Shown here piece by piece: positions 947 to 51,975 of a stretch of 64,000 nt of DNA. Every line of letters starts with the position of its first letter. Positions within the stretch are counted from its first letter, which is position 1. Both the position numbers and the translations under genes were made by a program. Location: assembly GCA_050945855.1 (NCBI GenBank), contig JBMNTS010000005.1, forward strand, positions 326 to 64,325. Reading direction: 5' to 3'. Under the pieces are notes generated by a model. That model saw nothing but the letters and a program-made list of their open reading frames with translations. It searched no databases and was not told the origin of the DNA. The DNA is from Christensenellales bacterium (GTDB taxonomy: Bacteria > Bacillota > Clostridia > Christensenellales > DTU072).

Positions 947-964
947 AAAGGGATTTATAATAAG

Positions 965-993
965 AAAAAAAGGGCGCCGTATTGGCGTCCTTT
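965..993. terminator. bidirectional rho-independent terminator
   Basis: GGGCGCC-gtatt-GGCGTCC stem-loop (972-990) flanked by A7 on the left and TTT on the right. Read on the minus strand it is followed by T7, closing the tRNA operon. It also lies just after the + strand stop. Confidence 0.6.
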
Positions 994-1001
994 ATAATTT
1001 C

Positions 1002-1077
1002 TGGTGGGAACAACAGGACTTGAACCTGTGGCATCTTGCTTGTAAGGCAAGCGCTCTCCCAGCTGAGCTATGCTCCC
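1002..1077 (-). tRNA. tRNA-Val (anticodon UAC)
   Basis: Reverse complement reads GGGAGCATAGCTCAGCTGGGAGAGCGCTTGCCTTACAAGCAAG...GGTTCAAGTCCTGTTGTTCCCACCA. Anticodon loop is CTTACAA. T-arm GGTTCAAGTCC. CCA is encoded. Confidence 0.9.
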
Positions 1078-1080
1078 TTT

Positions 1081-1155
1081 TGGTGACCCCAAGGAGAATC
1101 GAACTCCTGTTACCGCCGTGAAAGGGCGATGTCTTAACCGCTTGACCATGGGGCC
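1081..1155 (-). tRNA. tRNA-Glu (anticodon UUC)
   Basis: Reverse complement reads GGCCCCATGGTCAAGCGGTTAAGACATCGCCCTTTCACGGCGGTAACAGGAGTTCGATTCTCCTTGGGGTCACCA. Anticodon loop is CTTTCAC. It closely resembles Firmicute tRNA-Glu. Confidence 0.9.
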
Positions 1156-1161
1156 GGGAAT

Positions 1162-1238
1162 TGGTAGCGGCGGTCAGATTCGAACCAACGACCTGCCGGG
1201 TATGAACCGGCCGCTCTAACCAACTAAGCTACGCCGCC
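1162..1238 (-). tRNA. tRNA-Met, elongator type (anticodon CAU)
   Basis: Reverse complement reads GGCGGCGTAGCTTAGTTGGTTAGAGCGGCCGGTTCATACCCGGCAGGTC...CGCCGCTACCA. Anticodon loop is TTCATAC. The G1:C72 pair and overall sequence resemble elongator Met rather than initiator or Ile2. Confidence 0.8.
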
Positions 1239-1254
1239 ATGTAAATGTTGATTT

Positions 1255-1332
<78 letters not shown>

Positions 1333-2404: not shown

Positions 2405-3130
2405 TCAGATAATTTTATATTTTACAATCAGCGCCTGCATTTCCTTTAAGGGCGCGCGCCCTTTTTTGTAGCCTTTCAGCGCTCTTTTTACCGCCGTCCA
2501 AAACAACTCCAGCAGTAAGGCGTCGTCCTTTTCCAGCACATACTCAAACCCTTTAAGCATGGCGGCGTAATCGCTTTTGTCCTTTTGAATAAGCGTTTTG
2601 TCTACGGCGACAATCTCAATAAGCTCGTCTATCCAGAATTTCAGCTCGGATTTCGCGCCGGAGGGAAAATGCCGGGCGCAGCTTATCCCTTCTATAAGTT
2701 TTTCCCCTTCTCCCGCGTCCTCTTGCGTCAGCATTCTGATAAAGGCGTCCCTGAAAGGCACAATCGCCTGTTCGTAAAACTTCAGGTGCGCCCCCGCTAT
2801 GTTTTTGTCCTTGTAGTACTTGGAGACAAAGTTGGTTATCCCCTTTATGCCCTCCCGGAGCTCGTGCAGCAGCCCTATTATAAGCGCCACCTTTGCCCCG
2901 TCCTCTTCGGGCATCCTGATGTAGTAGCCCTTGTCATATTCGCAGCACGCCTTTTCCAGTTCCTTATAATAATTAAAGTCCTTGGTGGCGTCTTTTACCA
3001 CGTTGATTAATATGGGATTTTCCTCTATGTAGTCAAGCAGCTCGTCAATTACGGCTTCGCTGAGTCCGTGCGCCGTATTGCCTATGCTGGTGCATATCGC
3101 GTAAAACTTGCGGATAATACGTTCTTCCAT
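2405..3130 (-). CDS. hypothetical protein (all-helical, no recognised domain)
   Basis: The ORF is open to 3166, but AGGAGAG sits 5 nt upstream of the ATG at 3128-3130 (MEERIIRKFY...), so I prefer that start. Its stop overlaps the RBS of the AEC gene. Confidence 0.55.
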   Translation of the reverse strand: MEERIIRKFYAICTSIGNTAHGLSEAVIDELLDYIEENPILINVVKDATKDFNYYKELEKACCEYDKGYYIRMPEEDGAKVALIIGLLHELREGIKGITNFVSKYYKDKNIAGAHLKFYEQAIVPFRDAFIRMLTQEDAGEGEKLIEGISCARHFPSGAKSELKFWIDELIEIVAVDKTLIQKDKSDYAAMLKGFEYVLEKDDALLLELFWTAVKRALKGYKKGRAPLKEMQALIVKYKII

Positions 3131-5753: not shown

Positions 5754-5792
5754 AACTCCGCAAGCCACCAACTCAAAGGAAAAAATGATTAT

Positions 5793-5824
5793 GCAAAAAG
5801 CCTTGATTTATCAAGGCTTTTTGC
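5793..5824. terminator. bidirectional terminator between convergent genes
   Basis: GCAAAAAGCCTTGA-ttta-TCAAGGCTTTTTGC. A perfect long palindrome with A-run and T-run built into the arms. Confidence 0.7.
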
Positions 5825-5882
5825 ATATAAGACCTTGACTGACCTTGCGGCATAATGCCTTTTTTATCGTATTGCGTCGGGG

Positions 5883-6751: not shown

Positions 6752-7357
6752 ATGTTACAAGCCAAAGCGCTATCCGCACGGAAGCAGATAAAACATATTA
6801 ATGACAAAATACAGGCAATGGAAGAGTTGTTCCGGTATATCCATCTGGCTTCGATAATAATAGTAGCCTTAGGATTCGCGATTGCTTCAATAAAGAATGA
6901 AGGCCCCAGCATACTTATGTTTATAGTGCTGTTCAGCTTTTTTCTGGGAGAGGGGATTGCCCGCATGATATGGACTGCAAAAAAGAAATATCCCATGCTT
7001 GACACTATTAACACACTGGTGAAACAAGAGTTTGGCGAAGTTTCCTCCCCCGATGCGTCAAAGGCCTGGCTTGTGCTGGAATACTGGAAGAGAGCAAAAA
7101 CCCTTTTACTGATAAAAAAAGGTCTCCCCGCGCTTTCCGCGGTAAGGGTAAGCCGTTTGCGTAAAAAGTTCTATGTGCCCTTAAATGACCTCGGTCACGG
7201 CATAAAATCAAATGAAGAAGAAATAAGAGTGATTTGCGAGAATACCTTGAAAGAAATCAAGAAAAGTGTTAATGATTTGGGAGAGGACAAAATAATTGCG
7301 CCTTTGTATCTGGACACCGTAGGGCTGCTTAGCCGCAACGTCTACTGTGAGGAATAA
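6752..7357 (+). CDS. hypothetical membrane protein, paralog 1
   Basis: Two TM helices followed by about 120 aa of soluble tail. Shares WTAKK.Y, FG.V and (S/G)HGIK motifs with the next ORF. Confidence 0.6.
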   Translation: MLQAKALSARKQIKHINDKIQAMEELFRYIHLASIIIVALGFAIASIKNEGPSILMFIVLFSFFLGEGIARMIWTAKKKYPMLDTINTLVKQEFGEVSSPDASKAWLVLEYWKRAKTLLLIKKGLPALSAVRVSRLRKKFYVPLNDLGHGIKSNEEEIRVICENTLKEIKKSVNDLGEDKIIAPLYLDTVGLLSRNVYCEE

Positions 7358-15234: not shown

Positions 15235-18204
15235 ATGAAATACAGGATAAACAAAGAGAACTACAAAACTTTTTCCGTTTTTGAAGAAAACAGAATGTCC
15301 CCGCGTACATATTTTATTCCCTTTTCTCAAAAAAGCGAACTTGCGATTACCTCTCCGCAAAGCGAGAGGTATTATTCGGACAAGGTTACCCTGCTTTCGG
15401 GGGAATGGGATTTTATCTATTACGATAAGGTAAGCGGGATTGCGGACGAATTTGACTCCGATGAGGTAGGCTGGCAGAGCGTAAGCGTGCCTTCGGTATG
15501 GCAAAGGACGGGTTTTGAGTCTCCCGTATATCTTAACCATTCTTATCCCTTCCCCTCCAAGCCTCCGCGCTTCCCATACGATTGCCCGGCAGGGATATAC
15601 AGAAAACGCTTTAGCGTGCAGGGCTATTCCCGCCATATCCTCACCTTTTTGGGCGCTGCGGGCGGACTGGAAGTTTACGTCAACGGGAAACGGGTAGGTT
15701 ACGGCGAAGGCAGCCACAATACGCAGGAATTTGACATAACCCCCTTTGTTCAAAGCGGGGAAAACGAGCTTGTGGCGGTGCTGTTCAAGTGGAGTAACGG
15801 CACTTATTTGGAATGTCAGGATATGTTCAGGGAAAACGGCATTTTCCGCGACGTATATATTACGTCTTTGGCGGAGTATGATTTTTGGGATATAAAGCTC
15901 ACTCCCAAAAAGAGCGGCTTCGGGTGGGAACTGCAAATAGCCGCCATGCTGAACAATAAGGACGACGATTTTCAGGCAACGGCCTATCTGTATGACAATG
16001 ACCGATTGGTGGCGCAAGCCGAATTAAGGGACAATTACGCCGAGCTAACCGACCTGGAAGTGCAGGAGTGGTCCGCGGAAATACCTTACCTTTACGAATT
16101 GTATCTGGAGATTGTGCACAACGGTGAAACGCTTAGCGTAGTTCGCAGCTTTGTAGGCTTCAAAGAGGTAAGCATAGACGGGGCAGTCTTTAAAATCAAC
16201 GGCAGGGCGGTAAAGCTGTTGGGCGTAAACCGTCACGACACGCATCCGCAAAAGGGATATGCGATTAGCGTGGAGGATATAGAGCGGGATATTTTGCTTC
16301 TTAAGCAATTCAACTGCAATGCCGTTCGCACTTCGCACTATCCCCCCGACCCCGTGTATCTGCAGCTTTGCGACATTTACGGGCTGTACGTGATAGACGA
16401 GGCGGATATAGAGTGTCACGGCGCCATTAGAAAGGGGCGCAGAGGCAGGATAAGCAACCGCCCGGAATGGGAAGGGCATTTTTTGGACAGAGTAAAGCGC
16501 ATGGTAATCCGCGATTACAACCGCGCTTGCGTCGTTATGTGGTCATTAGGTAACGAGTCGGGCGGCAGGCGCAATCAGGACACCTGCGCGCGCTGGATAA
16601 AAAAGGTCAGCCCTCTGCCCGTGCATTACGAAAACGTTTACGGCCCCGTAAGGTTTGGCTACGACGTCACAAGCAGAATGTACACTCATCCCGAAACCCT
16701 GGAGAAAATAGGGCAGGGCAAGGCGAACATTTTTTACGGTAAAGGCAAAAAGCCCTTTTTCCTTTGCGAATACGCTCACGCCATGGGAGTGGGTCCGGGC
16801 AGCTTAAAAGAGTATACGGACGCTTTCTTAAAGTATGACAACTTAATGGGCGGCTGCGTGTGGGAGATGATAGACCACGCGGTGGAGGGCTACAGCGATA
16901 AATACCGTTACACCTACGGAGGCGACCACGGCGAAGCGGCGCATGACGGCAATTTTTGCGTGGACGGCTTGTTTTTCCCGGACAGGACGCCGCATACGGG
17001 AGCGTACGCAATGCTGGAGGCTTACCGCCCTATAAGAGCGCAAATGCTTGCTCCCGACGTCTTTACTTTCAAAAACATACGCAGCTTCAAGAGCGCTGAG
17101 GATATCAGGATAAACTGGCTGCTGCTGAAAAACGGGGAAGAGGCGGACGGAAGTTCCTTTATAGCTGATATCGCCCCCGGCGACACCATAGTAAAAAATA
17201 TCACTTACAAGGATATGGATAAGGATGCGGAATACGTGCTGCGCTTCACTTATACGAATCTTGAAAAAACCTTGACGCTGGGCAACGACGAGTTTATTGT
17301 TCAGGCGGCTGACTTGCGACACATTCCCGGGGAAGGCGAGTGCAAAAGGAGTATTGAGGACGGCAAGTGCATTATAGAATGCGAAAATTCAAGCATAGTT
17401 TTTGACAAAAAGGAAGGCAGACTTGCCGGCATTAAGGTAGCGGGACAGGAAGTGCTGGCGAACGCTGTTGCCCCCAATATTGCGCGCGCGGATCTGGACA
17501 ACGATGGCAAAATCAAAAAACGCTGGAAAAAACAGGGGCTGTACGAAAGAAAGCTCAAGGTCAGAAAAGTGACCGAGACCCTTGAGGCCGGCCGCGCGGT
17601 CTATCAGGTAAGCGCCGCTTACGGCGGAAAGACTAAGTTCAGGCTAAACACCGTATACGAGCTTTTTGCGGACGGCAGCATCAAAATCACCAATTCCATA
17701 AAGAGTATGTTCAAAAAAATCAATCTGCCCCGCTTCGGCAATATGCTGAGACTGAACAGAAGCTATGAAAACATCGAGTATTACGGCAGAGGGGAAAAGG
17801 AAAACCTGCCCGACTTTAAGCTGCAGGCGCAACTGGGCAGATACTCTGCCAAAATCGCCGACTTTGCGCAAAACTACATAAAACCGCAGGAATCCGGCAT
17901 TCATACGGATATGCGCCTGGTAAGCCTTACCAACAAAAAGGGAGAGGGAATAGCCATAAAAGCGTGCTGCGCGCCCTTTATATTTAACGCAAGCCTATAT
18001 GACACCGACAGTATTATAAGCGCCGCCCACCCCGAGGACTTGCGCCCCGCTGACGCCGCTCTTATCTATATAGACGGCTTTATGCGCGGCACAGGCAGCA
18101 ACTCCTGCGGCCCAAAACCCATGGAAATGTATACGGTCAAAGCGGGCAGAGCGCCACTGACCTATTCTTATATTATCTGTCCTATAACAAAAAGCGATAA
18201 ATAA
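15235..18204 (+). CDS. lacZ: beta-galactosidase, glycoside hydrolase family 2 (LacZ architecture)
   Basis: 989 aa. NRHDTHP, acid/base WSLGNESG and nucleophile region FLCEYAHAMG. The C-terminal about 270 aa resembles the LacZ small-chain/domain 5. RBS AGGAG 8 nt after the permease stop. Confidence 0.88.
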   Translation: MKYRINKENYKTFSVFEENRMSPRTYFIPFSQKSELAITSPQSERYYSDKVTLLSGEWDFIYYDKVSGIADEFDSDEVGWQSVSVPSVWQRTGFESPVYLNHSYPFPSKPPRFPYDCPAGIYRKRFSVQGYSRHILTFLGAAGGLEVYVNGKRVGYGEGSHNTQEFDITPFVQSGENELVAVLFKWSNGTYLECQDMFRENGIFRDVYITSLAEYDFWDIKLTPKKSGFGWELQIAAMLNNKDDDFQATAYLYDNDRLVAQAELRDNYAELTDLEVQEWSAEIPYLYELYLEIVHNGETLSVVRSFVGFKEVSIDGAVFKINGRAVKLLGVNRHDTHPQKGYAISVEDIERDILLLKQFNCNAVRTSHYPPDPVYLQLCDIYGLYVIDEADIECHGAIRKGRRGRISNRPEWEGHFLDRVKRMVIRDYNRACVVMWSLGNESGGRRNQDTCARWIKKVSPLPVHYENVYGPVRFGYDVTSRMYTHPETLEKIGQGKANIFYGKGKKPFFLCEYAHAMGVGPGSLKEYTDAFLKYDNLMGGCVWEMIDHAVEGYSDKYRYTYGGDHGEAAHDGNFCVDGLFFPDRTPHTGAYAMLEAYRPIRAQMLAPDVFTFKNIRSFKSAEDIRINWLLLKNGEEADGSSFIADIAPGDTIVKNITYKDMDKDAEYVLRFTYTNLEKTLTLGNDEFIVQAADLRHIPGEGECKRSIEDGKCIIECENSSIVFDKKEGRLAGIKVAGQEVLANAVAPNIARADLDNDGKIKKRWKKQGLYERKLKVRKVTETLEAGRAVYQVSAAYGGKTKFRLNTVYELFADGSIKITNSIKSMFKKINLPRFGNMLRLNRSYENIEYYGRGEKENLPDFKLQAQLGRYSAKIADFAQNYIKPQESGIHTDMRLVSLTNKKGEGIAIKACCAPFIFNASLYDTDSIISAAHPEDLRPADAALIYIDGFMRGTGSNSCGPKPMEMYTVKAGRAPLTYSYIICPITKSDK

Positions 18205-18214
18205 TATATCACGG

Positions 18215-18381
18215 CAATTAATAAGAAAAAAGCCTTGAGAACACTATAAATCTACCTTAACACGCCGCAGGCGTATTGCATTTCGGCATAAGCCGAAATT
18301 GCATATTGCCGGTATAGGCAATATTTCATATTGGCGCAAGCCAATATTTAATTGCGCCGCAAGGCGCCTTGCGGACGCGCA
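18215..18381 (+). repeat. dispersed intergenic element: about 45-nt head plus array of 6 short hairpins with conserved ATTGCAT-type spacers
   Basis: Hairpins are ACGCC-gca-GGCGT, TTCGGC-ataa-GCCGAA, ATTGCC-ggtata-GGCAAT, ATTGGC-gcaa-GCCAAT, GCGCC-gcaa-GGCGC and TGCG-gacg-CGCA. Spacers are ATTGCAT, ATTGCAT, ATTTCAT and ATTTAAT. 18257-18304 matches the reverse complement of 51777-51824 at 46 of 48 positions (manual alignment). Confidence 0.75.
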
Positions 18382-18382
18382 T

Positions 18383-21300
18383 CTATACAAGCATTTTCCC
18401 TATGGATGCCAACTCTTCCTGAGCTTCTTTGGGCAGCAGTACGGGCTGAATGCCCAGTTTATGACATTCCAGAATTTTGTGGGCGGTGATTTCCAATACT
18501 TCGGTAGTATCCGCCGCTCTCCTTACGCTGTTTCCGCAGACTACCAGACCGTGATTTTGCATTAGTGCCGCCGCGCCTTCCGCGCCTAAGGCATCGGCCA
18601 CCATATCGCCCAATTCGGGGGAGCCGGGGATAACAAAGTCCACTACGGGGACTTCGCCGATAAAGGCGGCGTCCGTGGAGACCGGCTTAAAGCTGAGATT
18701 GGTAAGCGCCATAAGGGTGGCCGCGGGGGCGTGGGAGTGAATCACCGCCATAATCTCCGGCCGTTTTTTGTAAATGGCAAGATGCACCATTTTTTCGCTG
18801 CTGGCGGAAAGGCTACTCTCGCCTACCACGTTGCCGTCAAGGTCTATGCGCACCATCATATCCGCCTTAAGGTCACCCTTGAATATGGAACTGGGCGTAA
18901 TCCATACGTGGTTGGGGTTGTCCTCACAGCGCGCGCTTACGTTGCCGCCTATGCCGGTAATAAGCCCTTTGGCGTAAAGCTCGTTGGTGACCTGCAATAT
19001 CTCGTCGCGCACGTCGCCCACTTTGGCAGCTTCAGGTTGGGCGTAAATGATTTTCTGTTCAACTGTTTCCCGCTTTTCCTCGGTTTTTTTCCCGAACAGC
19101 CTTGCAAAGAAACCTTGTTTCTTAGCCTGCCTTTCAACAACGGGCCGCGCCTCTTCCTTTTTGACTGTGTCCGCTTGCGGAGCAATTATCGGAGCCTGTG
19201 AAAGCGCGGAAACATCAGTGATACCCGTGCTTGCCATAGCTTTTCCGTAAGAGGTCATCATCAGCTTAAGCAAGGACTGCATGCTCATTGCCTTGCGCAC
19301 ATTGCCGGTAAAGCTCATTTTTCCCGTCATGGCCGCTTTCGCTCCGTTAACGGTGCCTTTCATCATTCCGTCAAATATCTCAATCGGCATATTCAGGCAC
19401 ACGTCGGCGGCGCCTCCGGTAAACTCGCCCAAGCCGCAAATAACCTCGCCGCCCTTGAAGTACATATAACAGCTTTGCCCGTTGTCCTTAAAGGTGATTT
19501 GGAAACTTATATCCTTACTCGCCGTCTTTTGCCCTACTTCCTCATCGGCGGAAAGCTCCTTTAAAAATGCCTCGATAAGCTGCATATATCCGCCCGCACC
19601 CGCCGGCGTTGCCGCGGTATCGGGTGCCTTTTGGGGCGCCGTTTCCGGCTTTTGAGATACCTTTACTTCTTGTTTCGCCGAAGCGGCGTCCAAATCGCTT
19701 ACCCCGGTCTGCTTGGCTTTAAGGCCGGCAAGCGCCTGTATATCCACCTTCCTTTCGCCCGTAAAGGAAAAGTCTTTAAGCGCCTTGCGGTTGATTACGT
19801 CCGAACTTAACTCTCCTTTGAGCAGCCTCTCGATATTTTCCGCGATTATCAGCCCCTGATGTATGCTTACCTGTTTGGTATTGCCGCCTATATGCGGAGT
19901 GCATAAAACGTTTTCCATTTGCACCAGCGGGTCATTATACGCCGGAGGCTCCACGTCAAATACGTCCAGTGCCGCTCCCGCCAGTTTTCCGCTTTTGAGA
20001 GCGTCCAACAGCGCGGCGCTGTCTACCAGCGCGGCGCGCGCGGTGTTGACGAAATACGCTCCGTCCTTCATTTTCGCGAACGCCTCCGCGTTAATCATCC
20101 CTTTGGTCTGCCCGGTTACCGGAGCATGCAGGCTTATTATATCGCTTTCACTAAGCAACTCGTCCAGTTCTGCCTTACGCGCGCCCATCAGAGCCGCCGC
20201 GCCGAAAGTAAGGTAAGGGTCGTACACCAGCACCTGCGCGCCGAAAGCAAGCAGCCTTTTCGCCACCTTTTTGCCTATCGCCCCGCCGCCTATAAGACCT
20301 ACCTTTTTGCGCCATAGTTCCATGCCCTGATAACGGAAATACGCCGCTCCCATTCTGCCCATATCCCCGGCCTGACCCCCTTCCTCTTTAAGGAAAGCCG
20401 CCGCCTGGGGAATCATGCGCGCGAGGTTGAGCATAAAAGCCAGCGCCAAATCCGCCACCGCCTCCGAATTTCTGCCCGGTGTGTACACTACCGCTATGCC
20501 CGCCGCGCTGCACGCGTCCACGTCGATATTGGTGGGATTGCCTCTGCATACGCCTATCATTCTGAGGTTGGGCAGCGCCTTTACTATGTCCGCGTCCACA
20601 ATATCCACTTCGGTAATAAAAATATCGTAATTTTTGAGGGTGGATATCATTTCCTCCCCTTCCAGCATGTCTCCGTCCCGGTAATTTTTCGCGGTGACTT
20701 CCCCGTAAGCGCGCAAAAGGTCGATAGCCTCCGCGGATAAATCCGCGTCCGAATAAATGCGCAGCTTAGCCTTTTGGGTGCCGCTCTTTTTTTCGCCCTC
20801 CGCCGACTTTAACTCGCTTATCAGCGCGCCTAACGGCATATTTGTTTCAAAGGAAGAGGCGTACGCCTCCCGCCACTCTTCGTAAATGCGGCGGTAGGTC
20901 TCCTCCTTGCCCGCGAACTTATCCTTTACGCCGACCATTTCGGCCGCTGCTTCCTTTAGCCCTTTGTATATCCCCGCGCCCGCCGCCGCGCATATAGCCG
21001 CGCCCAGTACGGACGCCTCCGGAAGCGCGGTCCTTATTATCTCCTTTTCCGTAACCTGAGAGATAATATAAGGAAAGATATCGTCTTTGCTCGCGCCGCC
21101 GCCTATGGCGATTTTTTCAGGCTCCGCCCCCGCGACCTCGGCAAGCTGGTCTATATTTGCCTTGACCCCGAAGGCAAGCCCTTCCACAACCCCGCGGGAA
21201 ATATTAGACCGGTCAAATTCGTTAGGAATATGATTGGTGGTGGAAAAGTATATCTGGTCAATGGGCAGGGCAAGCACGGAAACGTTGAAAACCGAAGCCC

Positions 21301-22318
21301 CCACCGTAGAGAGAAGCCCGCCCGCGCCGCAGGGAGCGGCGGCGGCGTTTTCCATAAGCGCGCCCACAGGATTGGGCAAGCCCTGATAAAGCAGCCCCGC
21401 TATCCATTCAAGCGCCATGCCCGAGCCGCCCGCGTTACTCTCCAATACATAAACGCCGGGGACGGGTCCCACGCCTGACCATAGCCTTTGCTTAGGGTCG
21501 ATTATCGGTTTTTCGGTAATCAATTGTATGGGCATGGTAGTGCCCGCCACGATTCCGCATTCCCCCGGGTTGACGATATTCATACCCAACAGCGCGCTTT
21601 GCGTATCTCCCGCGCCGTAGACCGCCCGCGCGCCCTCCTTAATATTGAGTTCCTTGCATAAATCGGGGAAAACCGTCCCCGCCTCGCTTGCGCAATCCAC
21701 AAGCGGTGGCAAAAACGCCTTGTTAAGCTCCAGTTTTTCGATAAGCTCATCCGACCAGGCCGAATTTTTAAGGTCGAACAATAAGGTTTCCCCCGCCTGT
21801 GTTCTTTCCACTCCGATTTTTCCGCAAAGACGGTAGATTATGTAATCGGAAAGGGTGAATACGGTGGCGATTTTGTCATACAAATCCCTTTGCGTATCCT
21901 TTAGCCACAGCAGCTTGCACGCCGTAAGGTTGGGCATGGGCTTATGCCCGCAGATGCTATAGATAAGGTCGGCGCAAGTGTCGTTTAAGCGCATTGTCGC
22001 ATCTACCGCGCGCGCGTCCCTGTTGGGGGAAGCAAACAGCGCCTCCCCGTCCTTATCCAGCGCAACCAGGGTATGCCTCATGGAAGATACGCCTATTGCG
22101 GCAATCTCGCTTACCCCCGCGCGCCTGACGCACTCCGCTATGCTTTCCCTGACCGCCTGCCAAATCAGGCCGGTATCCATACCGAAGCCGTAATCGCCTA
22201 TGGCGGATATGCCCCCTTTTACGTCGCGCCTGACCAGAGTAACCAACTCCTTACCGCAAAAAAGGGCGCACCTTATGGAGCCGCCCCCGATATCAATGCC
22301 TATTACGTTTTTTTTCAT
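18383..22318 (-). CDS. four-domain fusion protein: FGGY carbohydrate kinase / D-2-hydroxyacid dehydrogenase / SCP2 / class II aldolase-adducin
   Basis: A single 1311-aa ORF with RBS AGAGGT. aa 1-495 FGGY (IGIDIGGGSIR, GAGDTQSALLG, IAIGGGASKD). aa 517-845 2-HADH (GLIGGGAIGKKVAKRLLAFGAQVLVYDP, NTARAALVD, DVFDVEPP, TPHIGGNT). aa 908-1025 SCP2-like. aa 1098-1311 class II aldolase (GGNVSAR, HSHAP, QNHGLVV). Confidence 0.85.
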   Translation of the reverse strand: MKKNVIGIDIGGGSIRCALFCGKELVTLVRRDVKGGISAIGDYGFGMDTGLIWQAVRESIAECVRRAGVSEIAAIGVSSMRHTLVALDKDGEALFASPNRDARAVDATMRLNDTCADLIYSICGHKPMPNLTACKLLWLKDTQRDLYDKIATVFTLSDYIIYRLCGKIGVERTQAGETLLFDLKNSAWSDELIEKLELNKAFLPPLVDCASEAGTVFPDLCKELNIKEGARAVYGAGDTQSALLGMNIVNPGECGIVAGTTMPIQLITEKPIIDPKQRLWSGVGPVPGVYVLESNAGGSGMALEWIAGLLYQGLPNPVGALMENAAAAPCGAGGLLSTVGASVFNVSVLALPIDQIYFSTTNHIPNEFDRSNISRGVVEGLAFGVKANIDQLAEVAGAEPEKIAIGGGASKDDIFPYIISQVTEKEIIRTALPEASVLGAAICAAAGAGIYKGLKEAAAEMVGVKDKFAGKEETYRRIYEEWREAYASSFETNMPLGALISELKSAEGEKKSGTQKAKLRIYSDADLSAEAIDLLRAYGEVTAKNYRDGDMLEGEEMISTLKNYDIFITEVDIVDADIVKALPNLRMIGVCRGNPTNIDVDACSAAGIAVVYTPGRNSEAVADLALAFMLNLARMIPQAAAFLKEEGGQAGDMGRMGAAYFRYQGMELWRKKVGLIGGGAIGKKVAKRLLAFGAQVLVYDPYLTFGAAALMGARKAELDELLSESDIISLHAPVTGQTKGMINAEAFAKMKDGAYFVNTARAALVDSAALLDALKSGKLAGAALDVFDVEPPAYNDPLVQMENVLCTPHIGGNTKQVSIHQGLIIAENIERLLKGELSSDVINRKALKDFSFTGERKVDIQALAGLKAKQTGVSDLDAASAKQEVKVSQKPETAPQKAPDTAATPAGAGGYMQLIEAFLKELSADEEVGQKTASKDISFQITFKDNGQSCYMYFKGGEVICGLGEFTGGAADVCLNMPIEIFDGMMKGTVNGAKAAMTGKMSFTGNVRKAMSMQSLLKLMMTSYGKAMASTGITDVSALSQAPIIAPQADTVKKEEARPVVERQAKKQGFFARLFGKKTEEKRETVEQKIIYAQPEAAKVGDVRDEILQVTNELYAKGLITGIGGNVSARCEDNPNHVWITPSSIFKGDLKADMMVRIDLDGNVVGESSLSASSEKMVHLAIYKKRPEIMAVIHSHAPAATLMALTNLSFKPVSTDAAFIGEVPVVDFVIPGSPELGDMVADALGAEGAAALMQNHGLVVCGNSVRRAADTTEVLEITAHKILECHKLGIQPVLLPKEAQEELASIGKMLV

Positions 22319-25868: not shown

Positions 25869-25891
25869 TTAAAAAGACACATAATACAGAG

Positions 25892-25928
25892 CGGCCGCCC
25901 CGAGCATTCTTTGGGCGGCCGTTTTATT
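25892..25928 (+). terminator. rho-independent terminator
   Basis: CGGCCGCCC-12 nt loop-GGGCGGCCG followed by TTTTATTGT. Confidence 0.7.
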
Positions 25929-25955
25929 GTTATGCTTTTTCCGGCCTGTAAGTTA

Positions 25956-25984
25956 TTTACTTTTGAGTGTAAATATTGTACAAT
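25956..25984 (+). promoter_or_regulatory. candidate promoter of the transporter-iol operon
   Basis: TTTACT - 17 nt - TACAAT, about 27 nt upstream of the transporter start. Confidence 0.4.
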
Positions 25985-26010
25985 GTGCTTAATTGTGAGG
26001 TGACAAAAAA

Positions 26011-27402
26011 TTGATGGAAAAGAGATATTTAACCAAAAGGGAAAAATGGTCTTTCAGCCTTGCCGGATTGGGTCAGAATATGGCTTACGGCATAATGAGC
26101 AGCTTCCTGCTTACCTTTTATACGGACATTATGTTTTCGGACGCGCTCTGGGTGATTACCGTGATTATGATTATCGCGCGGGTGTGGGACGCGGTGAACG
26201 ACCTTATTATGGGCTCTATCGTAGACCGTACGCGCACCCGGCTGGGTAAGTGCAGACCGTATCTTCTGGCCGCGCCCCTGCCCATAGCGGTATTTACCGT
26301 ATTGATATTTATTAAGCCGGAACTGCCGCTGGCGGCCAGGGTGGCATACGCTATGTTTACTTATATTATGTGGGGTATGCTCTATACGATAGCTGACGTG
26401 CCTTTCTGGGCGCTTCCCTCCACCATGACTCCCAACGCCGCGGAAAGGGCGGACTTTTTAAGCTTTGCCCGCATAGTCAACGGCATTGGGGCGGCGCTGC
26501 CCATATTGGTTATGGAATTGTTCAAAGGGGACAGCGGCTACACCAAGCAAAGCTACCTGTATTCTGCGATAATTATGGCAGCGGCGGGCTGCAGCCTGTA
26601 TCTGCTCGCCTTTTTCAATTGCAGGGAAAGGATAAGACCGCCGGAGAAAAAGGAAACGCTTATTGACAATATCAAACTTATCCGGCTTAACAAGCCGCTT
26701 AAACTGGTGATTTGCTTAGGCGTGCTTTGCTTCGGGCGGTATATCGTAAATATGTTTTTGATTTACGCCTCCAGGGATATCTTTATCGGCGCGCCGCAGG
26801 GCTTTTCCATGATATTGCTAAGCCTTGTAATCGGCCTGGGCACCTTCCCCGGCATGGCGGTTATGCCCGCTTTGTTTAAGAAATTCAATTATAAGCAGAT
26901 AGCGATAGGCGCGGGTACCGCTTCTTTTGTTTTTCAGCTGGCGCTGTTTATAGCGGGCGTGGCGTCGGGATATAATTATTATGTCGCGCTGCCCTTCTTG
27001 TTTTTCTGCGGCATACCTTTCGGCGTTTACAATACCCTTACTTTCGCGATAATCGGGGACAGCGTGGATTACATGGAATGGAAAACGGGAAAGAGGATAG
27101 AGGGTATAGGCTTTGCCTGTCAGACCTTTATCAACAAAATGGGCGCGGCTATCTCTACCGGCTTGATACCGCTGTTGCTTATTCTGGTGGGATACCTTGC
27201 TCCCGAAAAGCGGGATGCGGACTACGCCATACCCCGTCTGGGACTGCTTATTGTCTTTTCTTTAGTGCCCGCGGTAAGCATGCTTTTGTCCACAATACCC
27301 ATGTATTTTTACGACTATGTGGGCAAGACCAAGGAAAGGGCGTTGGAAGAGCTGGCGGCGACGCGCAGACGTGAAGGCAGAATAATAGAAGGAGAGATTT
27401 AG
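26011..27402 (+). CDS. GPH (glycoside-pentoside-hexuronide):cation symporter family MFS transporter
   Basis: 12-TM profile. N-terminal FSLAGLGQNM...FYTD and the RVWDAVNDLIMGSIVDRTRTRLGKCRPY motif typical of MelB/YicJ-type transporters. The start may be TTG 26011 or ATG 26014. Confidence 0.85.
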   Translation: MMEKRYLTKREKWSFSLAGLGQNMAYGIMSSFLLTFYTDIMFSDALWVITVIMIIARVWDAVNDLIMGSIVDRTRTRLGKCRPYLLAAPLPIAVFTVLIFIKPELPLAARVAYAMFTYIMWGMLYTIADVPFWALPSTMTPNAAERADFLSFARIVNGIGAALPILVMELFKGDSGYTKQSYLYSAIIMAAAGCSLYLLAFFNCRERIRPPEKKETLIDNIKLIRLNKPLKLVICLGVLCFGRYIVNMFLIYASRDIFIGAPQGFSMILLSLVIGLGTFPGMAVMPALFKKFNYKQIAIGAGTASFVFQLALFIAGVASGYNYYVALPFLFFCGIPFGVYNTLTFAIIGDSVDYMEWKTGKRIEGIGFACQTFINKMGAAISTGLIPLLLILVGYLAPEKRDADYAIPRLGLLIVFSLVPAVSMLLSTIPMYFYDYVGKTKERALEELAATRRREGRIIEGEI

Positions 27403-36474: not shown

Positions 36475-36514
36475 AAAGGGCGCCTTCTTATTGAGTAATA
36501 GGGGGGCGTTTTTT
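36475..36514 (+). terminator. rho-independent terminator of gdh
   Basis: 12-bp stem CGCCTTCTTATT-gagt-AATAGGGGGGCG (including G:U pairs) followed by TTTTTT. Confidence 0.7.
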
Positions 36515-36517
36515 CGT

Positions 36518-36602
36518 GTGTCCTGCGGACACATGATGTACTCACCGGCGGGAGCATGATGTACAAGGCTACGCCTTGCATGATGTGTAAAGACTGCGTC
36601 TT
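36518..36602 (+). repeat. hairpin array with conserved (C)ATGATGT(A/G) spacers
   Basis: GTGTCC-tgc-GGACAC / ATGATGTA / CTCaCC-ggc-GGGAG / CATGATGTA / CAAGGC-tac-GCCTTG / CATGATGTG / AAGAC-tgc-GTCTT. Period 23-24 bp. Confidence 0.7.
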
Positions 36603-36643
36603 GACATTATAAGTGACGTGTAACAGCTCCCTTTTAGCTTTTA

Positions 36644-37678: not shown

Positions 37679-37826
37679 AGCGACCCTCCCGAATACCAAT
37701 CAACAGCTTGGTCAGGCTTTACTTTCTTATTCTATCATATTTCCGGTATTTCAAAGCCGTTTGACTGATTTTTTATCTCTTGCGGCGATTAGACCGTGAA
37801 TCTGACAGACAAATGGCGCATTGGCG

Positions 37827-37853
37827 CAAAAAAAGCCGCGTCGGAGCGGCTTT
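37827..37853 (-). terminator. rho-independent terminator
   Basis: Minus strand reads AAAGCCGC-tccgac-GCGGCTTTTTTTGC, directly after the 37887 gene. Confidence 0.7.
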
Positions 37854-37886
37854 GAAAAATACAATAGGATTATTGCGTTTTTTTAA

Positions 37887-39381: not shown

Positions 39382-40287
39382 TCATAGCCTATTATTCTTT
39401 AACACTTCGACCAACTCAAAAATACGCGCCAAATCGTCCTGACTGTAATAGTCTATGTATATCCGGCCTTTGCTTTTATTGCCGGTCACGCTTACTTTTG
39501 TGGCAAAGATCCTCTTCATATCGTTAAGCAAGCCTTTGAATTGGGCCTCCAACTCCTGCTTTTCTTCTTCGCTTAACGCTTTCTTTTGCAGCTCCGGATT
39601 AAGGTATACCCTTACCATGCGCTCCGCCTGCCTTACGCTCAGTCCGTTGTTTATTATTTTCGCGGCGAACTGCAACTGCTTTTCCTCATCCTGAACGCTG
39701 ATAAGACAACGCGCGTGCCCCGCGGAAAGACTGCCTTTGCGCACCAGTTCCTTTACCTCTTCGCATAAGGAAAGCAGCCTTAAGGAATTGGTAACGCTGG
39801 GACGGGCTTTGCCCACTTTGTCCGCGAGCTCCGCCTGGGTGAGGCCGTATAAGTCGATAAGCTCTTTGAGCGCCTCCGCTTCCTCAATCGCGTTAAGGTC
39901 CTCTCTTTGCAGGTTTTCTATAAGGCTTACTTCCTTTGCCTGCCTTTCGTCCAGCGCCTTTACAATAACGGGAATTTTGTCAAGACCCGCAAGTTTTGCC
40001 GCCCTTACCCGTCTTTCCCCGGCGACTACTATGTAACTATCTCCTCTCTTTTGTACGATTATCGGTTGAAGCAAACCGTATTCCCGTATTGATTGAGCCA
40101 GTTCTTCCAATTCCTCTTTGCCGAAATACTTGCGCGGCTGATTGGGATTAAAGATTATTTTGGCAAGCTCCGCCTCATAAATCTTTTCTCCTTCCTCGCT
40201 GCTTATTAACGTAAGTTCTGACAATGAGGCGTCCTCTATGTTGCTGAGCAGCGTAGAGAGACCTTTGCCAATTCGTTTTTTGGACAT
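39382..40287 (-). CDS. parB: ParB/Spo0J/Noc family partition protein
   Basis: NPNQPRKYF, LAQSIREYGLLQPIIV and VAGERRVRAAKLAG ParB-box motifs, plus the HTH GLTQAELADKVGKARPSVTNSLRLL. Confidence 0.85.
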   Translation of the reverse strand: MSKKRIGKGLSTLLSNIEDASLSELTLISSEEGEKIYEAELAKIIFNPNQPRKYFGKEELEELAQSIREYGLLQPIIVQKRGDSYIVVAGERRVRAAKLAGLDKIPVIVKALDERQAKEVSLIENLQREDLNAIEEAEALKELIDLYGLTQAELADKVGKARPSVTNSLRLLSLCEEVKELVRKGSLSAGHARCLISVQDEEKQLQFAAKIINNGLSVRQAERMVRVYLNPELQKKALSEEEKQELEAQFKGLLNDMKRIFATKVSVTGNKSKGRIYIDYYSQDDLARIFELVEVLKNNRL

Positions 40288-40312: not shown

Positions 40313-41002
40313 TTATAAGGGTTTAGCCTTGGCTTTTCCCGCGCTTCTGGGGTACTTGGGATTGGTTTTCCCCAGCTTTTTTATTATCACTAAACTCCTT
40401 AAGTAAGTGTTATCCAGTAAAAACTGATGTGTGTGTTCGATAACGCAGTTCAGTTCGGCAAGCGCGTTGCCGCTTGCGGCGATTTCCGCCGCCGCGTCGC
40501 TCTTGTACGCTATCAGCCTGCCGCCCGTCTTAAGGTAGGGGACGACATACTCTATCAGCACGGGCAGGCTTGCCACCGCCCTTGCCAGACCTACGTCAAA
40601 GCTCTCCCTTAAATGTCCTATGTCCTCCGCCCGCCTGTGGAGCGCGCAAACATTGGAAAGGGCAAGCTCCCCTATTGCCTTAAGAGTGAAATTGACCCTC
40701 TTTGCCAGCGAATCTATTAAGGTGAGCCTGCAATCAGGTCTTGCTATGGCAATGACCAGTCCGGGCAGTCCCGCCCCGCTGCCTACATCCACCACGCTTG
40801 CGCCCGAGGGTATAAAGCTGTGCGCGCTCAGGCTGTCCGCGAGATGTTTAATAAGCACGTCATAAGGCTCGCTCACCGCGGTAAGGTTGTACTTTTTGTT
40901 TTCTTCCAGCAGTATGGCGGAGAATTTCAACAGGGAATCGGCCGCGCTTTCGCTTAAATCCAATCCCAATTCTCCCGCTTTTTGCATCAATATTTCACGC
41001 AT
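40313..41002 (-). CDS. rsmG: 16S rRNA (guanine527-N7)-methyltransferase
   Basis: KYNLTAV...IKHLADSL...VVDVGSGAGLPGLVIAI is typical of RsmG/GidB. Lies immediately upstream of parB, as in Firmicutes. Confidence 0.9.
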   Translation of the reverse strand: MREILMQKAGELGLDLSESAADSLLKFSAILLEENKKYNLTAVSEPYDVLIKHLADSLSAHSFIPSGASVVDVGSGAGLPGLVIAIARPDCRLTLIDSLAKRVNFTLKAIGELALSNVCALHRRAEDIGHLRESFDVGLARAVASLPVLIEYVVPYLKTGGRLIAYKSDAAAEIAASGNALAELNCVIEHTHQFLLDNTYLRSLVIIKKLGKTNPKYPRSAGKAKAKPL

Positions 41003-44563: not shown

Positions 44564-45994
44564 ATGCAAGATTATAATAAAAAGTATCTGACGCGTACCA
44601 ACGTGTTTTCCTTTGCCGCAGGCGGCTTCGGACAAAATATGATAATAGGAATAGTCAATTCCTTTATCCTGTTTTTTTATACGGACATTCTTCTTATACC
44701 CACCGCCGCGGTAACCGTGCTGATGGCTTCCGCCAGGATTTTTGACGCGCTTAACGACCCGATTATGGGCATAATCGTAGACAAGACGCGCTCACGCTGG
44801 GGCAAACTCAGGCCGTATATTTTCGCAACGGTACTGCCTTTGGCGATAATCACCACCTTGCTGTTTTACGCCCCCGATTTGTCCGAAAAAGGCAAAATCG
44901 TTTACGCTTACATAACTTACTTTAGTTTCGGCATTATTTATACTATTTGCGACGTGCCTTTCTGGGGGCTTGCCTCCGCGATGACGCCCAATCCGGAAGA
45001 GCGTATACGCTTTATTTCTTTTTCCAGACTCTTTCACTCGGTGGGCGGCGCGCTGCCTATTCTGCTGGTGCCGATGTTTGTAAGTCTTGCGGGCGGCAGC
45101 AACCGGAAGGGATATTTTTCCGCGGGCTTGTTTGTGGGTATAGTGGGAGCGGCGCTGTTCTCTCTTGCTTTTTTCGGCACCAATGAAAGATGTGTTCAAT
45201 CGGAAAAAGCGCCCACGCTTAAGGATAACATAAAATTCTTTTTAATCAACCGCCCCCTTCAGCTGGTTGTGGGAGCCAACATTCTGGGCGCGGGCAGGGC
45301 TATCGCAATGGTGGCGAGTATGTATATCGCCGTATACCTTTTAGGCAACCCCTCCCTTAATATCATTGTTTTGGGCTCCTTTGGCGTTACGGGCTATTTA
45401 GGCATGCTGATTACTCCTCTGCTTGCCAAAAAAATCAACTACCGTCAAATGTATATTATGTGTACCATAATCGGCGTAACGGCAAATGCGCTGATGTTTG
45501 TTTGGGGGCAAAGCATGGCGGCTATTCTGGTTTGTATGGTAATAGCGGGCTTCCCTTACGGCGTGGCATCCAATATCAATTACGCCATGATTGCGGACAG
45601 CGTGGATTACGTGGAATGGAAAACGGGCAAACGCACGGAGGGCGTGTCAGCATCCTTCCAGACGCTTATGAACAAGCTTATGTCCGCCCTGCAGGTGGCG
45701 GGCACCGCTTACGCGCTCAAAACAGTCGGTTTTAAGCAGCCGGTTATGATTGACGGCGAACCGGTGACGCAGGTGCAGACGCAAGGCACGCTTAACGGCA
45801 TTTTCTTTGTAATTTCCATTATCCCCATGGTCAGTTGGATAATCGGACTGGCGCCTATGCTCTTCTACACCTTTATAGGCGAAAAGCGGCAGATTGCCCA
45901 CAGGGCGATAATTGATATGCGCAACCAAATCGGCGCGAAAGCCGAAGGGCAAGGCGTAGGGTGTGAAGATATAGAGTTTTTTGAGGAATACTAA
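44564..45994 (+). CDS. GPH:cation symporter family MFS transporter (second copy)
   Basis: Same motif set as 26011..27402 (FSFAAGGFGQNM...FYTD; RIFDALNDPIMGIIVDKTRSRWGKLRPY). Confidence 0.85.
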   Translation: MQDYNKKYLTRTNVFSFAAGGFGQNMIIGIVNSFILFFYTDILLIPTAAVTVLMASARIFDALNDPIMGIIVDKTRSRWGKLRPYIFATVLPLAIITTLLFYAPDLSEKGKIVYAYITYFSFGIIYTICDVPFWGLASAMTPNPEERIRFISFSRLFHSVGGALPILLVPMFVSLAGGSNRKGYFSAGLFVGIVGAALFSLAFFGTNERCVQSEKAPTLKDNIKFFLINRPLQLVVGANILGAGRAIAMVASMYIAVYLLGNPSLNIIVLGSFGVTGYLGMLITPLLAKKINYRQMYIMCTIIGVTANALMFVWGQSMAAILVCMVIAGFPYGVASNINYAMIADSVDYVEWKTGKRTEGVSASFQTLMNKLMSALQVAGTAYALKTVGFKQPVMIDGEPVTQVQTQGTLNGIFFVISIIPMVSWIIGLAPMLFYTFIGEKRQIAHRAIIDMRNQIGAKAEGQGVGCEDIEFFEEY

Positions 45995-46078
45995 TTGCGT
46001 CCGCAAGGCGCGCCCTGCGAACGCAAATGATACGTTCCCTTCGGGAACATGATACACGCCCTTACGGGCGCATGATAC
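45995..46078 (+). repeat. hairpin array with conserved ATGATAC spacers
   Basis: A long hairpin TTGCGT...ACGCAA encloses GGCGCGCC. Then ATGATAC / GTTCCC-ttc-GGGAAC / ATGATAC / CGCCC-ttac-GGGCG / cATGATAC. Period 22-23 bp. It begins 1 nt after the stop of the 44564 gene. Confidence 0.7.
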
Positions 46079-46132
46079 AAGCTACCCTCTTATTTGTGCT
46101 TGCTTTCCGGACGGCTTTTTGCAGAGAATGGG

Positions 46133-50795: not shown

Positions 50796-51749
50796 ATGGA
50801 CATTTACAAACAAATCGAGCTTGCGGGCATCATCCCTTTGATTAAACTGGAAAGACTGGAAAAAGCGCTGCCGCTTATGGGCGCTTTGACGGCGGGAAGC
50901 ATCAATTTATGCGAAATCGCTTTCCGAACGCAGATAGCCAAGGAAGCGATAGCGCTGATTGCGCAAAAAAGCGCGAATATGGTAGTAGGCGCAAGCACCG
51001 TGCTGTCCACAATGCAGGTGGATGACGCCATAGAGGCGGGAGCGCGGTTTATAGTCACCGCCGGATTTAACGAAAAGGTGGTGGATTACTGCCTGAAAAG
51101 AAAGGTGCCGGTTATCCCCGGCGTATCCTCCCCTTCGGATATAGAAAAAGCGTACGAAAGAGAAATTTATGTGGTCAAATTTTTCCCCGCTGTGCCTTTG
51201 GGCGGCGTGGAAATGCTAAAGGCGCTGGCGCAGCCTTATCCCTTTATGCGTTTTTTGCCCACAGGCGGCATCAATCAGGACAATCTCAACGAATTTTTGG
51301 CTTTCAACAGGGTTATTGCCTGCGGCGGCAGCTATATGGTAAACGAGGAACTGATTAAAGAGGACAGATACGAGGAAATAACCAAAAACGCGCGCAACGC
51401 GGTCAATTCCATGCTCAACCTCAGACTGGACCATATCGTATTATCCGCAAAATCGCAGGAAAGGCAAGACCTTGCCACCGAAATCGCCACCCTTTTGGGC
51501 GCGCCCTTTGTGTATGAGGAAGGGGAAAAAATAGGGGATATGATAGCGGTATCCTCACGGATTGCCTACGGAAAGCACGGGGCTATTTTCTTTTCCACCC
51601 CTCATCTGGAGCGCGCGATATTTTATCTGGAAAAGCGGGGCTTTGAGTTTTGCCGCGCTACCACGATAAAGGATAACGGCAAACTCAACGCCTTATATCT
51701 GAAAGCTAATTTTGCCGGCTTTGCAATCGGCTTGGTGAAAGCGCCGTAA
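50796..51749 (+). CDS. eda: KDPG/KHG aldolase (Eda) with C-terminal VOC/glyoxalase-like extension
   Basis: aa 1-215 carry the Eda pattern (GIIPLIK..., EIAFRT, VVKFFPA Schiff-base lysine context, PTGGI). aa 216-317 (LDHIVLS...HGAIFFSTPHLERAIFYLEKRGFEF...) look like one VOC beta-alpha-beta-beta-beta module. Confidence 0.7.
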   Translation: MDIYKQIELAGIIPLIKLERLEKALPLMGALTAGSINLCEIAFRTQIAKEAIALIAQKSANMVVGASTVLSTMQVDDAIEAGARFIVTAGFNEKVVDYCLKRKVPVIPGVSSPSDIEKAYEREIYVVKFFPAVPLGGVEMLKALAQPYPFMRFLPTGGINQDNLNEFLAFNRVIACGGSYMVNEELIKEDRYEEITKNARNAVNSMLNLRLDHIVLSAKSQERQDLATEIATLLGAPFVYEEGEKIGDMIAVSSRIAYGKHGAIFFSTPHLERAIFYLEKRGFEFCRATTIKDNGKLNALYLKANFAGFAIGLVKAP

Positions 51750-51761
51750 GACGCTCCAAGG

Positions 51762-51868
51762 GCGCCTTACGGCGCAATGCAATATCGGCTTATGCCCAAA
51801 TGCAATACGCCTGCGGCGTGTTAAGGCGGATTGATAGTAAGTTTCTTGAGTTTTTTCTTTATTAATTG
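51762..51868 (-). repeat. inverted copy of the 18215-18381 element (shorter hairpin tail)
   Basis: + strand reads GCGCC-ttac-GGCGC / AATGCAAT / degenerate tCGGC-ttat-GCCca / AATGCAAT / ACGCC-tgc-GGCGT, then GTTAAGG...TTTTTTCTTTATTAATTG. This is the reverse complement of the head of the 18.2-kb copy. Confidence 0.75.
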
Positions 51869-51892
51869 GGCGCCCGCAATCGGCGAAGCGGA

Positions 51893-51921
51893 TTGACAAT
51901 AGCTGGGCGCGGTTATATAAT
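51893..51921 (+). promoter_or_regulatory. consensus promoter of the PRT-DUF2156-GNAT-kinase operon
   Basis: TTGACA - 17 nt - TATAAT. RBS TAAGGAG before the ATG at 51976. Confidence 0.65.
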
Positions 51922-51975
51922 GTGAAAAGTATTAATTTTAATTGCGGCAAGAGCAGCCGCGCTAAGGAGTAACGG

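Follow-up and report, generated by a model that had tools for sequence, protein, structure and literature searches.

A hairpin array related to Gut-1 RNA and its further copies at gene 3' ends in a Christensenellales genome

Introduction

What kind of element fills a gap between two converging genes when its hairpins all differ in sequence and only the 7-nt spacers between them are conserved? The gap in question (18205-18382, 178 nt) lies in a 64-kb stretch of DNA from a Christensenellales bacterium (GenBank assembly GCA_050945855.1, contig JBMNTS010000005.1, positions 326 to 64,325). This whole stretch is here called the window, and the plus and minus strands refer to it. A prediction made earlier from the sequence alone (hereafter the original prediction) read the gap on the plus strand as a head followed by six hairpins, and its author knew of no described family with such a layout. 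One does exist, however, as the Gut-1 RNA (RF01706) has exactly this combination of variable hairpins and conserved linkers. The array, here named array A, reads on the minus strand and is oriented with the gene to its right, and members of its family are found in at least four gene 3' gaps of the window. We identify it with high confidence as a dispersed repeat of the Gut-1 class.

The array between the converging genes

The sequence and the coordinates of the gap, the head, the hairpins and the spacers are those originally reported. On the plus strand, the region with five or six different GC-rich hairpins extends over 18262-18381, and the linkers start at 18275, 18298, 18323 and 18346, that is, with a period of 23-25 nt. 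The gene on the right encodes FGGY-kinase, D-2-hydroxyacid-dehydrogenase, SCP2 and class-II-aldolase/epimerase domains in a single polypeptide. In the plus-strand reading the features are as follows:

15235-18204, plus strand: GH2 beta-galactosidase gene, left of the gap
18215-18261, plus reading: head, 47 nt
18262-74, plus reading: hairpin 1, ACGCC-GCA-GGCGT
18275-81, plus reading: linker ATTGCAT
18282-97, plus reading: hairpin 2, TTCGGC-ATAA-GCCGAA
18298-304, plus reading: linker ATTGCAT
18305-22, plus reading: hairpin 3, ATTGCC-GGTATA-GGCAAT
18323-29, plus reading: linker ATTTCAT
18330-45, plus reading: hairpin 4, ATTGGC-GCAA-GCCAAT
18346-52, plus reading: linker ATTTAAT
within 18353-81, plus reading: hairpins 5 and 6, GCGCC-GCAA-GGCGC and TGCG-GACG-CGCA
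18383-22318, minus strand: 1311-aa fusion gene, right of the gap, with its TAG stop at 18385-18383

The informative strand is, however, the minus strand. The former head is the 3' tail of the element, whose start lies not behind lacZ but next to the fusion gene, 2 nt past its TAG stop. Read in this direction, array A consists of:

18353..18381, minus strand: 5' module, a 10-bp bulged GC-rich hairpin GCGuCCGCAAG-GCGC-CUUGCGGCGC, originally counted as hairpins 5 and 6
18275..18352, minus strand: three hairpin units and four linkers, within the full-length Gut-1 alignment 18270-18354
18352-46, minus strand: linker AUUAAAU
18345-30, minus strand: unit AUUGGC-UUGC-GCCAAU
18329-23, minus strand: linker AUGAAAU
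18322-05, minus strand: unit AUUGCC-UAUACC-GGCAAU
18304-298, minus strand: linker AUGCAAU
18297-82, minus strand: unit UUCGGC-UUAU-GCCGAA
18281-75, minus strand: linker AUGCAAU
18255..18274, minus strand: terminal hairpin ACGCC-UGC-GGCGU, then GUUAAGG, the same in copy 2 (see below)
18215..18254, minus strand: 3' tail UAGAUUUAUAGUGUUCUCAAGGC-UUUUUUCUUAUUAAUUG, common to copy 2

The count of six is right for small hairpins, but the minimum-energy fold of the minus strand joins the last two into the single bulged hairpin of the 5' module. The general architecture is a GC-rich 5' hairpin, two to five units, a terminal hairpin and the motif RUUARGG. Each unit combines a short hairpin of free sequence with a single-stranded 7-nt linker of constrained sequence (RUGAnAU-like), and the linkers occur here in the dialects AUGCAAU/AUGAAAU, AUGAUAC and AUGAUGU.

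Compared with shuffled sequences, the gap has a folding energy of z = -4.5 on both strands, and the array proper reaches z = -5.3 on the minus strand, none of 200 shuffles being equally stable. When the 64 kb were scanned for chains of perfect hairpins, exactly one chain of five was obtained (maximum of three across 20 shuffles), and among another 1.1 Mb from unrelated loci only this element and one relative have chains of at least four different hairpins. It had been claimed that the stems differ from unit to unit while pairing is preserved, and this agrees with the 22 units compared: arms of the same unit pair at 4.5 of 5 positions, arms of different units at 1.75 of 5. The own-arm level was reached in none of 10000 permutations, and 20 of the 22 arms are distinct. 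Within array A, single base-pair flips distinguish units 1-3 from one another. Tandem Repeats Finder did not detect the array as a repeat, which fits units that have the linker as their sole shared part.

The proposal that neighbouring stems compete for the TGCA core of the spacers finds no support in the minimum-energy fold, where hairpins 2 and 3 are extended with different linker bases and the extensions coexist. Loop-linker pseudoknots and a k-turn/C-box-like pairing of the UGAU linkers were also considered and were rejected, the complementarity being inconsistent between arrays when compared by eye.

Relationship to the Gut-1 RNA

Gut-1 RNA was described as three variable hairpins joined by conserved RUGAnAU linkers (Rfam RF01706; Weinberg et al., 2010, Genome Biol 11:R31, PMC2864571), with the consensus CARYnAAAU - hairpin - GUGAAAU - hairpin - RUGAnAU - hairpin - RUGAAAU (RF01706; PMC2864571). 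It was reported from human-gut metagenomes and from no sequenced organism, was listed among the likely non-coding RNAs, and on the basis of covariation was rated as 'certainly RNA' by Weinberg et al. (PMC2864571). Gut-1 has been an orphan motif since 2009-2010, typed by Rfam as a small RNA (sRNA), and no literature on Gut-1 or RF01706 after 2010 was found.

In an Rfam scan at permissive thresholds Gut-1 was the sole significant match, located at 18270-18354 on the minus strand and covering the full length of the model (positions 1-77). The score of array A is 38.7 bits (E 4e-6 locally; 5e-4 when all families are compared with the whole window). Gut-1 is also the top Rfam match, in the predicted orientation, of array B (19.0 bits) and copy 2 (19.4 bits), two further arrays of the window, while a longer B array in strain L012 scores 26.7 bits and an array of another species, L102, 33.7 bits. 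As controls, canonical Gut-1 elements gave 64.6 and 59.1 bits and the reverse half of one of them 45.6 bits. Since this reverse half of a canonical element attains only 45.6 bits, a score of 38.7 falls within the range of diverged relatives.

The layout agrees as well. The 5' flank CAAUUAAAU fits CARYnAAAU and the linker AUGAAAU fits its counterpart, while AUGCAAU (twice) is off at one position. At the other end, ACGCC-UGC-GGCGU with GUUAAGG in copies 1 and 2 stands against UGCC-UGC-GGCA with GUUU in Gut-1, GCC-UGC-GGC and the following GUU being common to array A and the Gut-1 seeds. As judged from these alignments, the array is a diverged relative of Gut-1 and not a member by Rfam's criterion, and at the level of sequence and predicted structure the family is shown to be structurally and detectably related to Gut-1.

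Canonical Gut-1 was located with a 21-mer of its terminal hairpin at a minimum of 120 metagenomic loci, in at least 73 distinct sequence contexts; among the matches listed there are at least 12 different flanks, and several contigs carry two copies. In the canonical element a GC hairpin is followed by a forward array (GTGATAT), around which TTATATTCGCC/GGCGAATATAA pair as a long-range stem, and then by the terminal hairpin and a reverse array (ATATCAC). The long-range stem and the reverse array are not part of the Rfam model. In human-gut metagenome contigs (L137-L256) the element is longer than 204 nt and is conserved for about 40 nt past the last linker, and in one copy (L146) the inner part of the 5' hairpin is inverted. 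Between canonical copies that follow the same tRNA gene (L160/L178 vs L140/L152) there is a difference of two units.

Array A and its relatives share with Gut-1 three or more variable hairpins, conserved single-stranded linkers, dispersed multi-copy occurrence, a variable number of units and a source in gut Clostridia-type DNA, as well as positions at gene 3' ends or after terminators. They differ from it in the linkers (AUGCAAU/AUGAAAU/AUUAAAU, also AUGAUAC and AUGAUGU, as opposed to GUGAUAU/GUGAAAU) and in having no long-range closing stem UUAUAUUCGCC/GGCGAAUAUAA; neither an equivalent closing stem nor a trailing reverse array is present in 18205-18382. The composite of strain L012 is divergent (a reverse and then a forward array), whereas canonical Gut-1 is convergent. 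New with respect to Gut-1 as known are the linker dialects, the host, here a Christensenellales metagenome-assembled genome (MAG), the array start flush with a stop codon and the unit-wise polymorphism.

Further arrays and conservation of the linker

The original prediction regarded array A as one copy of a dispersed element, and a second copy that includes the conserved head is indeed present on the opposite strand at 51741-51868, with 88% identity over 69 nt. Altogether four arrays are found in the 64 kb, each in a gene 3' gap. Those additional to array A, and the array of another species mentioned above, are:

51741..51868, plus strand: copy 2 of array A, fold z -3.5
45995..46078, plus strand: array B, linker AUGAUAC, fold z -3.0
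36518..36613, plus strand: array 4, weaker, four units of which one is decayed, fold z only -1.2
2898-3005 of CANQUB010000017.1 (uncultured Clostridia bacterium Lapin-023__bin71): L102 array, four hairpins, linker ATGATAC

In copy 2 the 5' hairpin encloses the TAA stop (51747-49) of a KDPG-aldolase-like gene. Behind it stand AUGCAAU, a unit that has decayed, a second AUGCAAU, the hairpin ACGCC-UGC-GGCGU with GUUAAGG, and the U-rich tail. Relative to copy 1, two whole units are missing, the breakpoints being at linkers, and the end of copy 2 is separated by 25 nt from a perfect downstream TTGACA-17-TATAAT promoter (51893-51921). In array B the 5' module is flush with the TAA stop (45992-45994) of an MFS gene and precedes AUGAUAC, GUUCCC-UUC-GGGAAC, AUGAUAC, ACGCCC-UUAC-GGGCGC and AUGAUAC. 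This gene is one of two paralogous MFS_2 transporter genes in the window (26011-27402 and 44564-45994), which are 72-81% identical over short stretches. Array 4 has the linker AUGAUGU three times (36533, 36556 and 36580), so that it holds three of the four ATGATGT of the window, spaced 23-24 nt, and it ends in AUUAUAAG. It lies directly 3' of the canonical terminator (36475-36514) of a glutamate dehydrogenase gene, and in other strains a spurious open reading frame (ORF) of 50-59 aa is called over it. The 7.6 kb beyond the left edge of the window contain no further array. An exact 22-mer of the core (ACACGCCGCAGGCGTATTGCAT) has no match in genome or metagenome contig collections, which lack the species, and among viral contigs neither a 20-mer of this core nor the core of canonical Gut-1 has a match.

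A genome scan for three ATGATAC at hairpin spacing returned mostly plain tandem repeats, and L102 is the sole true array among the matches listed. It reads ATTATAC TCGGCC-TTT-GGCCGA ATGATAC TCACTTGC-CTT-GCAAGTGA ATGATAC TTGCT-CCTTTGA-AGCAA ATGATAC TCGTGC-TAC-GCACGA ATTAGGG. The hairpins of this array, which belongs to another species, are unrelated to those of the window, while its linker is that of array B and its ending ATTAGGG is similar. The upstream ORF (2007-2930) ends at a TGA within the first linker. The same locus has a T-box leader at 6778-6948 (minus strand). The earlier view that the spacers are the conserved part is borne out by the recurrence of ATGATAC among unrelated hairpins and by arms that differ but remain paired; lineages keep the linker and replace the hairpins completely.

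Strain variation and modularity

In strain L012 (JGI contig Ga0610559_000016, 13937-14430) the gap between the converging genes measures 494 nt instead of 178, that is, 316 nt more. It contains array A, a B-type array (ATGATAC three times and then ATGATGC), ATTAAGG, a GC hairpin with a U-tract, and an identical second array A. The GC hairpin is strong and terminator-like (GGCCGCCC-TAA-GGGCGGCC and the U-tract). The composite is bounded by CCTTAAC...ATTAAGG, possibly a terminal inverted repeat of 6-7 bp, with no target-site duplication evident. The window allele could be a deletion between two direct copies of A, or the L012 allele a duplication. The long L012 allele and array B have modules in common, and one pair of them displays a compensatory insertion of a C:G pair (ACGCC-TTAC-GGCGC in L012, ACGCCC-TTAC-GGGCGC in array B of the window).

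Another strain (L016, from ENA) has the short form with small changes that are confined to the 5' module, and several short-read contigs end within the element. Across 10-16 strains no differences occur in array B, array 4 or copy 2. Just past the tail of copy 2, which is identical in all strains compared there, 51869-51921 carries about 17 substitutions between the window strain and nine others; the patch falls in the spacer of the TTGACA-17-TATAAT promoter of a phosphoribosyltransferase gene and looks like a recombination patch. Outside the species, the closest homologues of the fusion protein are about 60% identical, so that no close relative offers the orthologous locus. Arrays change by gain and loss of entire units and modules, and they do so at the linkers.

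Position relative to stop codons, terminators and promoters

In all three well-formed arrays of the window, the 5' module (GCG(C)GTCCGCAAGGCGC or GACGCTCCAAGGGCGCC), in Gut-1 orientation, begins 0-2 nt past a co-oriented stop codon. The chance of such stop-flush placement is approximately 6e-6, a rough hand estimate based on how copy 2, array B and L102 are oriented and on the lengths of their gaps. Array A itself fills its whole gap and therefore gives no information on this point.

Promoter prediction gave no promoter-like site for the gap of array A, and no canonical terminator, i.e., a hairpin with a U-tract, is found in the gaps 18205-18382, 45995-46132 and 51750-51975. Canonical terminators are present in other 3' gaps of the window (947-1004, 5754-5882, 25869-26010, 36475-36514 and 37700-37886). 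Copy 2, by ending 25 nt before the promoter of the next gene, occupies the position where a terminator would be expected. A terminator scan flagged hairpins 1 and 3 on the plus strand, solely on account of the T-rich linkers. The U-tract of the A-type tail (UUUUUUCUUAUU) is located on the minus strand, 32 nt past the last hairpin, and resembles the U-tracts of the canonical terminators at 947-1004 and 5754-5882. The terminator at 947-1004 is bidirectional and follows a cluster of four tRNA genes (1005-1332, minus strand), and its U-tract (TTTTTTTCTTATTAT) is much like the A-type tail. At 5790-5825, between converging genes, there is a perfect bidirectional terminator AAAAAGCCTTGATTTATCAAGGCTTTTT. 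Its 3' half (TCAAGGCTTTTT) and the tail of array A (CTCAAGGCTTTTTT) match, so that half of a bidirectional terminator of this kind may be the origin of the A-type tail.

Comparison with other repeat and RNA systems

Repetitive extragenic palindromic sequences (REPs) and bacterial interspersed mosaic elements (BIMEs) of enterobacteria are extragenic, lie at 3' ends or between converging genes, are mosaic and of strain-variable copy number, stabilise the upstream mRNA and aid termination. A REP has one genome-wide consensus palindrome of about 35 nt, a GTAG-type tetranucleotide, alternating orientation and a cognate REP-associated tyrosine transposase (RAYT, a Y1 HUH transposase). The arrays of the window resemble REP/BIME in their extragenic position at gene 3' ends, their four dispersed copies and their mosaic palindromic units with conserved inter-unit motifs, but their hairpins are all different, the units are in direct orientation and GTAG is lacking. 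The nearest concepts originally put forward, REP/BIME-like elements or a structured module of the 3' untranslated region (UTR), were reasonable, while the REP features of a single consensus palindrome, alternating orientation and GTAG are not found.

BOX elements of Streptococcus pneumoniae, in which the boxB modules are near-identical 45-nt repeats, likewise occupy dispersed intergenic sites in a Gram-positive genome, are also highly structured and share the order of head, variable internal modules and tail; unlike the arrays, they do not follow the scheme of a conserved short linker and a free hairpin. In CsrB/RsmZ-type sRNAs, which are single-copy genes with their own promoter, a short conserved motif is similarly displayed many times on a scaffold of variable hairpins, the GGA motif being mostly in loops. 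With clustered regularly interspaced short palindromic repeats (CRISPR) the arrays have in common the periodic alternation of conserved and variable segments. The logic is the inverse, as already proposed: in the arrays stretches of 7 nt are conserved and palindromes of 13-20 nt vary, a far smaller scale, whereas CRISPR combines identical repeats of 24-48 nt with unique spacers of 26-72 nt. No cas-like domains were found among the neighbouring genes, and the array is not a CRISPR.

Explanations of the array

On balance, we think it probable, though only somewhat so, that the array is a BIME-like, dispersed and modular extragenic repeat of the Gut-1 structural class that resides in transcript 3' ends and has a linker that is recognised. 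The upstream mRNA would carry the transcribed array as its 3' end, and in this position the stable stack of hairpins may form a barrier that blocks 3' exonucleases and insulates or terminates transcription where a canonical terminator is lacking. A sequence-specific factor would read the linker and bind, process or copy the array. By analogy, the element could be a clostridial counterpart of REP/BIME that spread selfishly and was co-opted at gene ends. In this mechanism, i.e., the hairpin barrier and the linker-reading factor, our confidence is low to moderate.

A number of points weigh against this explanation. Array A does not reach the Gut-1 gathering cut-off of 50 bits. We infer both the transcription of the arrays and its strand, and the strand assigned by Rfam is not favoured by a test of G.U versus A.C in 73 canonical copies (13 vs 62 cells, dominated by a few inherited changes). 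Relative to the flanking ORFs the canonical composites occur in both orientations, as far as can be told from naive ORF calling, which is noisy in GC-rich contigs. Since no hairpin stands directly before the U-tract of the tail, this is not a canonical terminator, and the placement of array 4 and of canonical Gut-1 after terminators argues against a role that needs read-through from the upstream gene. Finally, the portion of the genome examined is limited to about 72 kb, within which no binding or mobilising factor was identified.

The arrays might instead be purely selfish DNA, either REP/RAYT-like or similar to miniature inverted-repeat transposable elements, in which the hairpins would be recognised as single-stranded DNA, a transposase, of the HUH type or another, would use the linker as its cleavage motif or target, and effects on RNA would be incidental. 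Multiple near-identical copies, mosaics and strain-level insertions and deletions are in line with this, and so are the canonical Gut-1 composites of forward and reverse array in both orientations relative to genes, the possible terminal inverted repeat around the L012 composite and the siting of elements after terminators and tRNA genes. Random extragenic insertion, however, would not yield the co-oriented, stop-flush 5' modules of three window arrays or an ORF that ends in the first linker of L102. The hairpins within an array are all different, unlike those of REPs, no target-site duplication was seen, and the window and the genes called in the 7.6-kb left flank include no transposase or Y1 (tyrosine HUH) gene, which leaves the originally suggested link to RAYT/IS200 unsupported. 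We consider this account possible, if unlikely. We also judge it unlikely, and a little more firmly so, that the linker-defined hairpin arrays (Gut-1, the element of the window and L102) make up a broad unrecognised class of gut Clostridia with the 7-nt linker RUGAWRY, set between arbitrary hairpins, as functional core, that is, a new repeat system and not a variant of REP/BIME. Members of such a class would be multivalent platforms for a sequence-specific factor binding RNA or single-stranded DNA, would lengthen or shorten by single units at the linkers and would use lineage-specific dialects.

A stand-alone sRNA gene with its own promoter and terminator, acting in trans, for instance as a CsrB/RsmZ-like sponge for a RUGAnAU-binding protein, appears quite improbable. 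Repeated single-stranded motifs between variable hairpins are an architecture of protein-sequestering RNAs, and the linkers are conserved across species; the rating of Gut-1 as 'certainly RNA' (PMC2864571) is a further argument for an RNA gene. Against it, the arrays begin 0-2 nt past a stop codon with no promoter-like site predicted, and four copies of differing unit content in 64 kb suit a repeat family better. In the form of an sRNA derived from a 3' UTR this account may still hold. Least credible is a local stack of ordinary terminator hairpins between the converging genes, with the spacers left over from tandem duplication. It would account for the location, for the two plus-strand hairpins that with their T-rich spacers were flagged as terminator-like, and for the base-pair flips between units 1-3, which are expected after duplication. 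It is largely refuted by the same modules at other loci of the window and by copies in other genomes, and it fits poorly with the same linker among unrelated hairpins in another species (L102), with the significant full-length match to the independently defined Gut-1 family and with an array that Tandem Repeats Finder does not see. We regard it as most improbable.

Other features of the window

The domain architecture of the fusion gene is shared, at 37-62% identity, by many MAGs of Clostridia, Anaerolineae and other groups, in some cases with an extra PF14864 domain. Elsewhere in the window, genes for ParB (39382-40287) and RsmG/GidB (40313-41002) adjoin each other on the minus strand, an arrangement usually found near the replication origin. 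GC skew in the window tracks gene strand only and has no clear switch.

Implications

The present analysis recasts Gut-1-type motifs as dispersed extragenic repeats in which the linker is the conserved part. An architecture previously seen in human-gut metagenome fragments only is found here as a dense family in a Christensenellales genome. In practical terms, such arrays break short-read assemblies and draw spurious calls of small ORFs. For the biology of the family, two questions become testable, namely what reads the linker and whether the arrays set the 3' ends of mRNAs.

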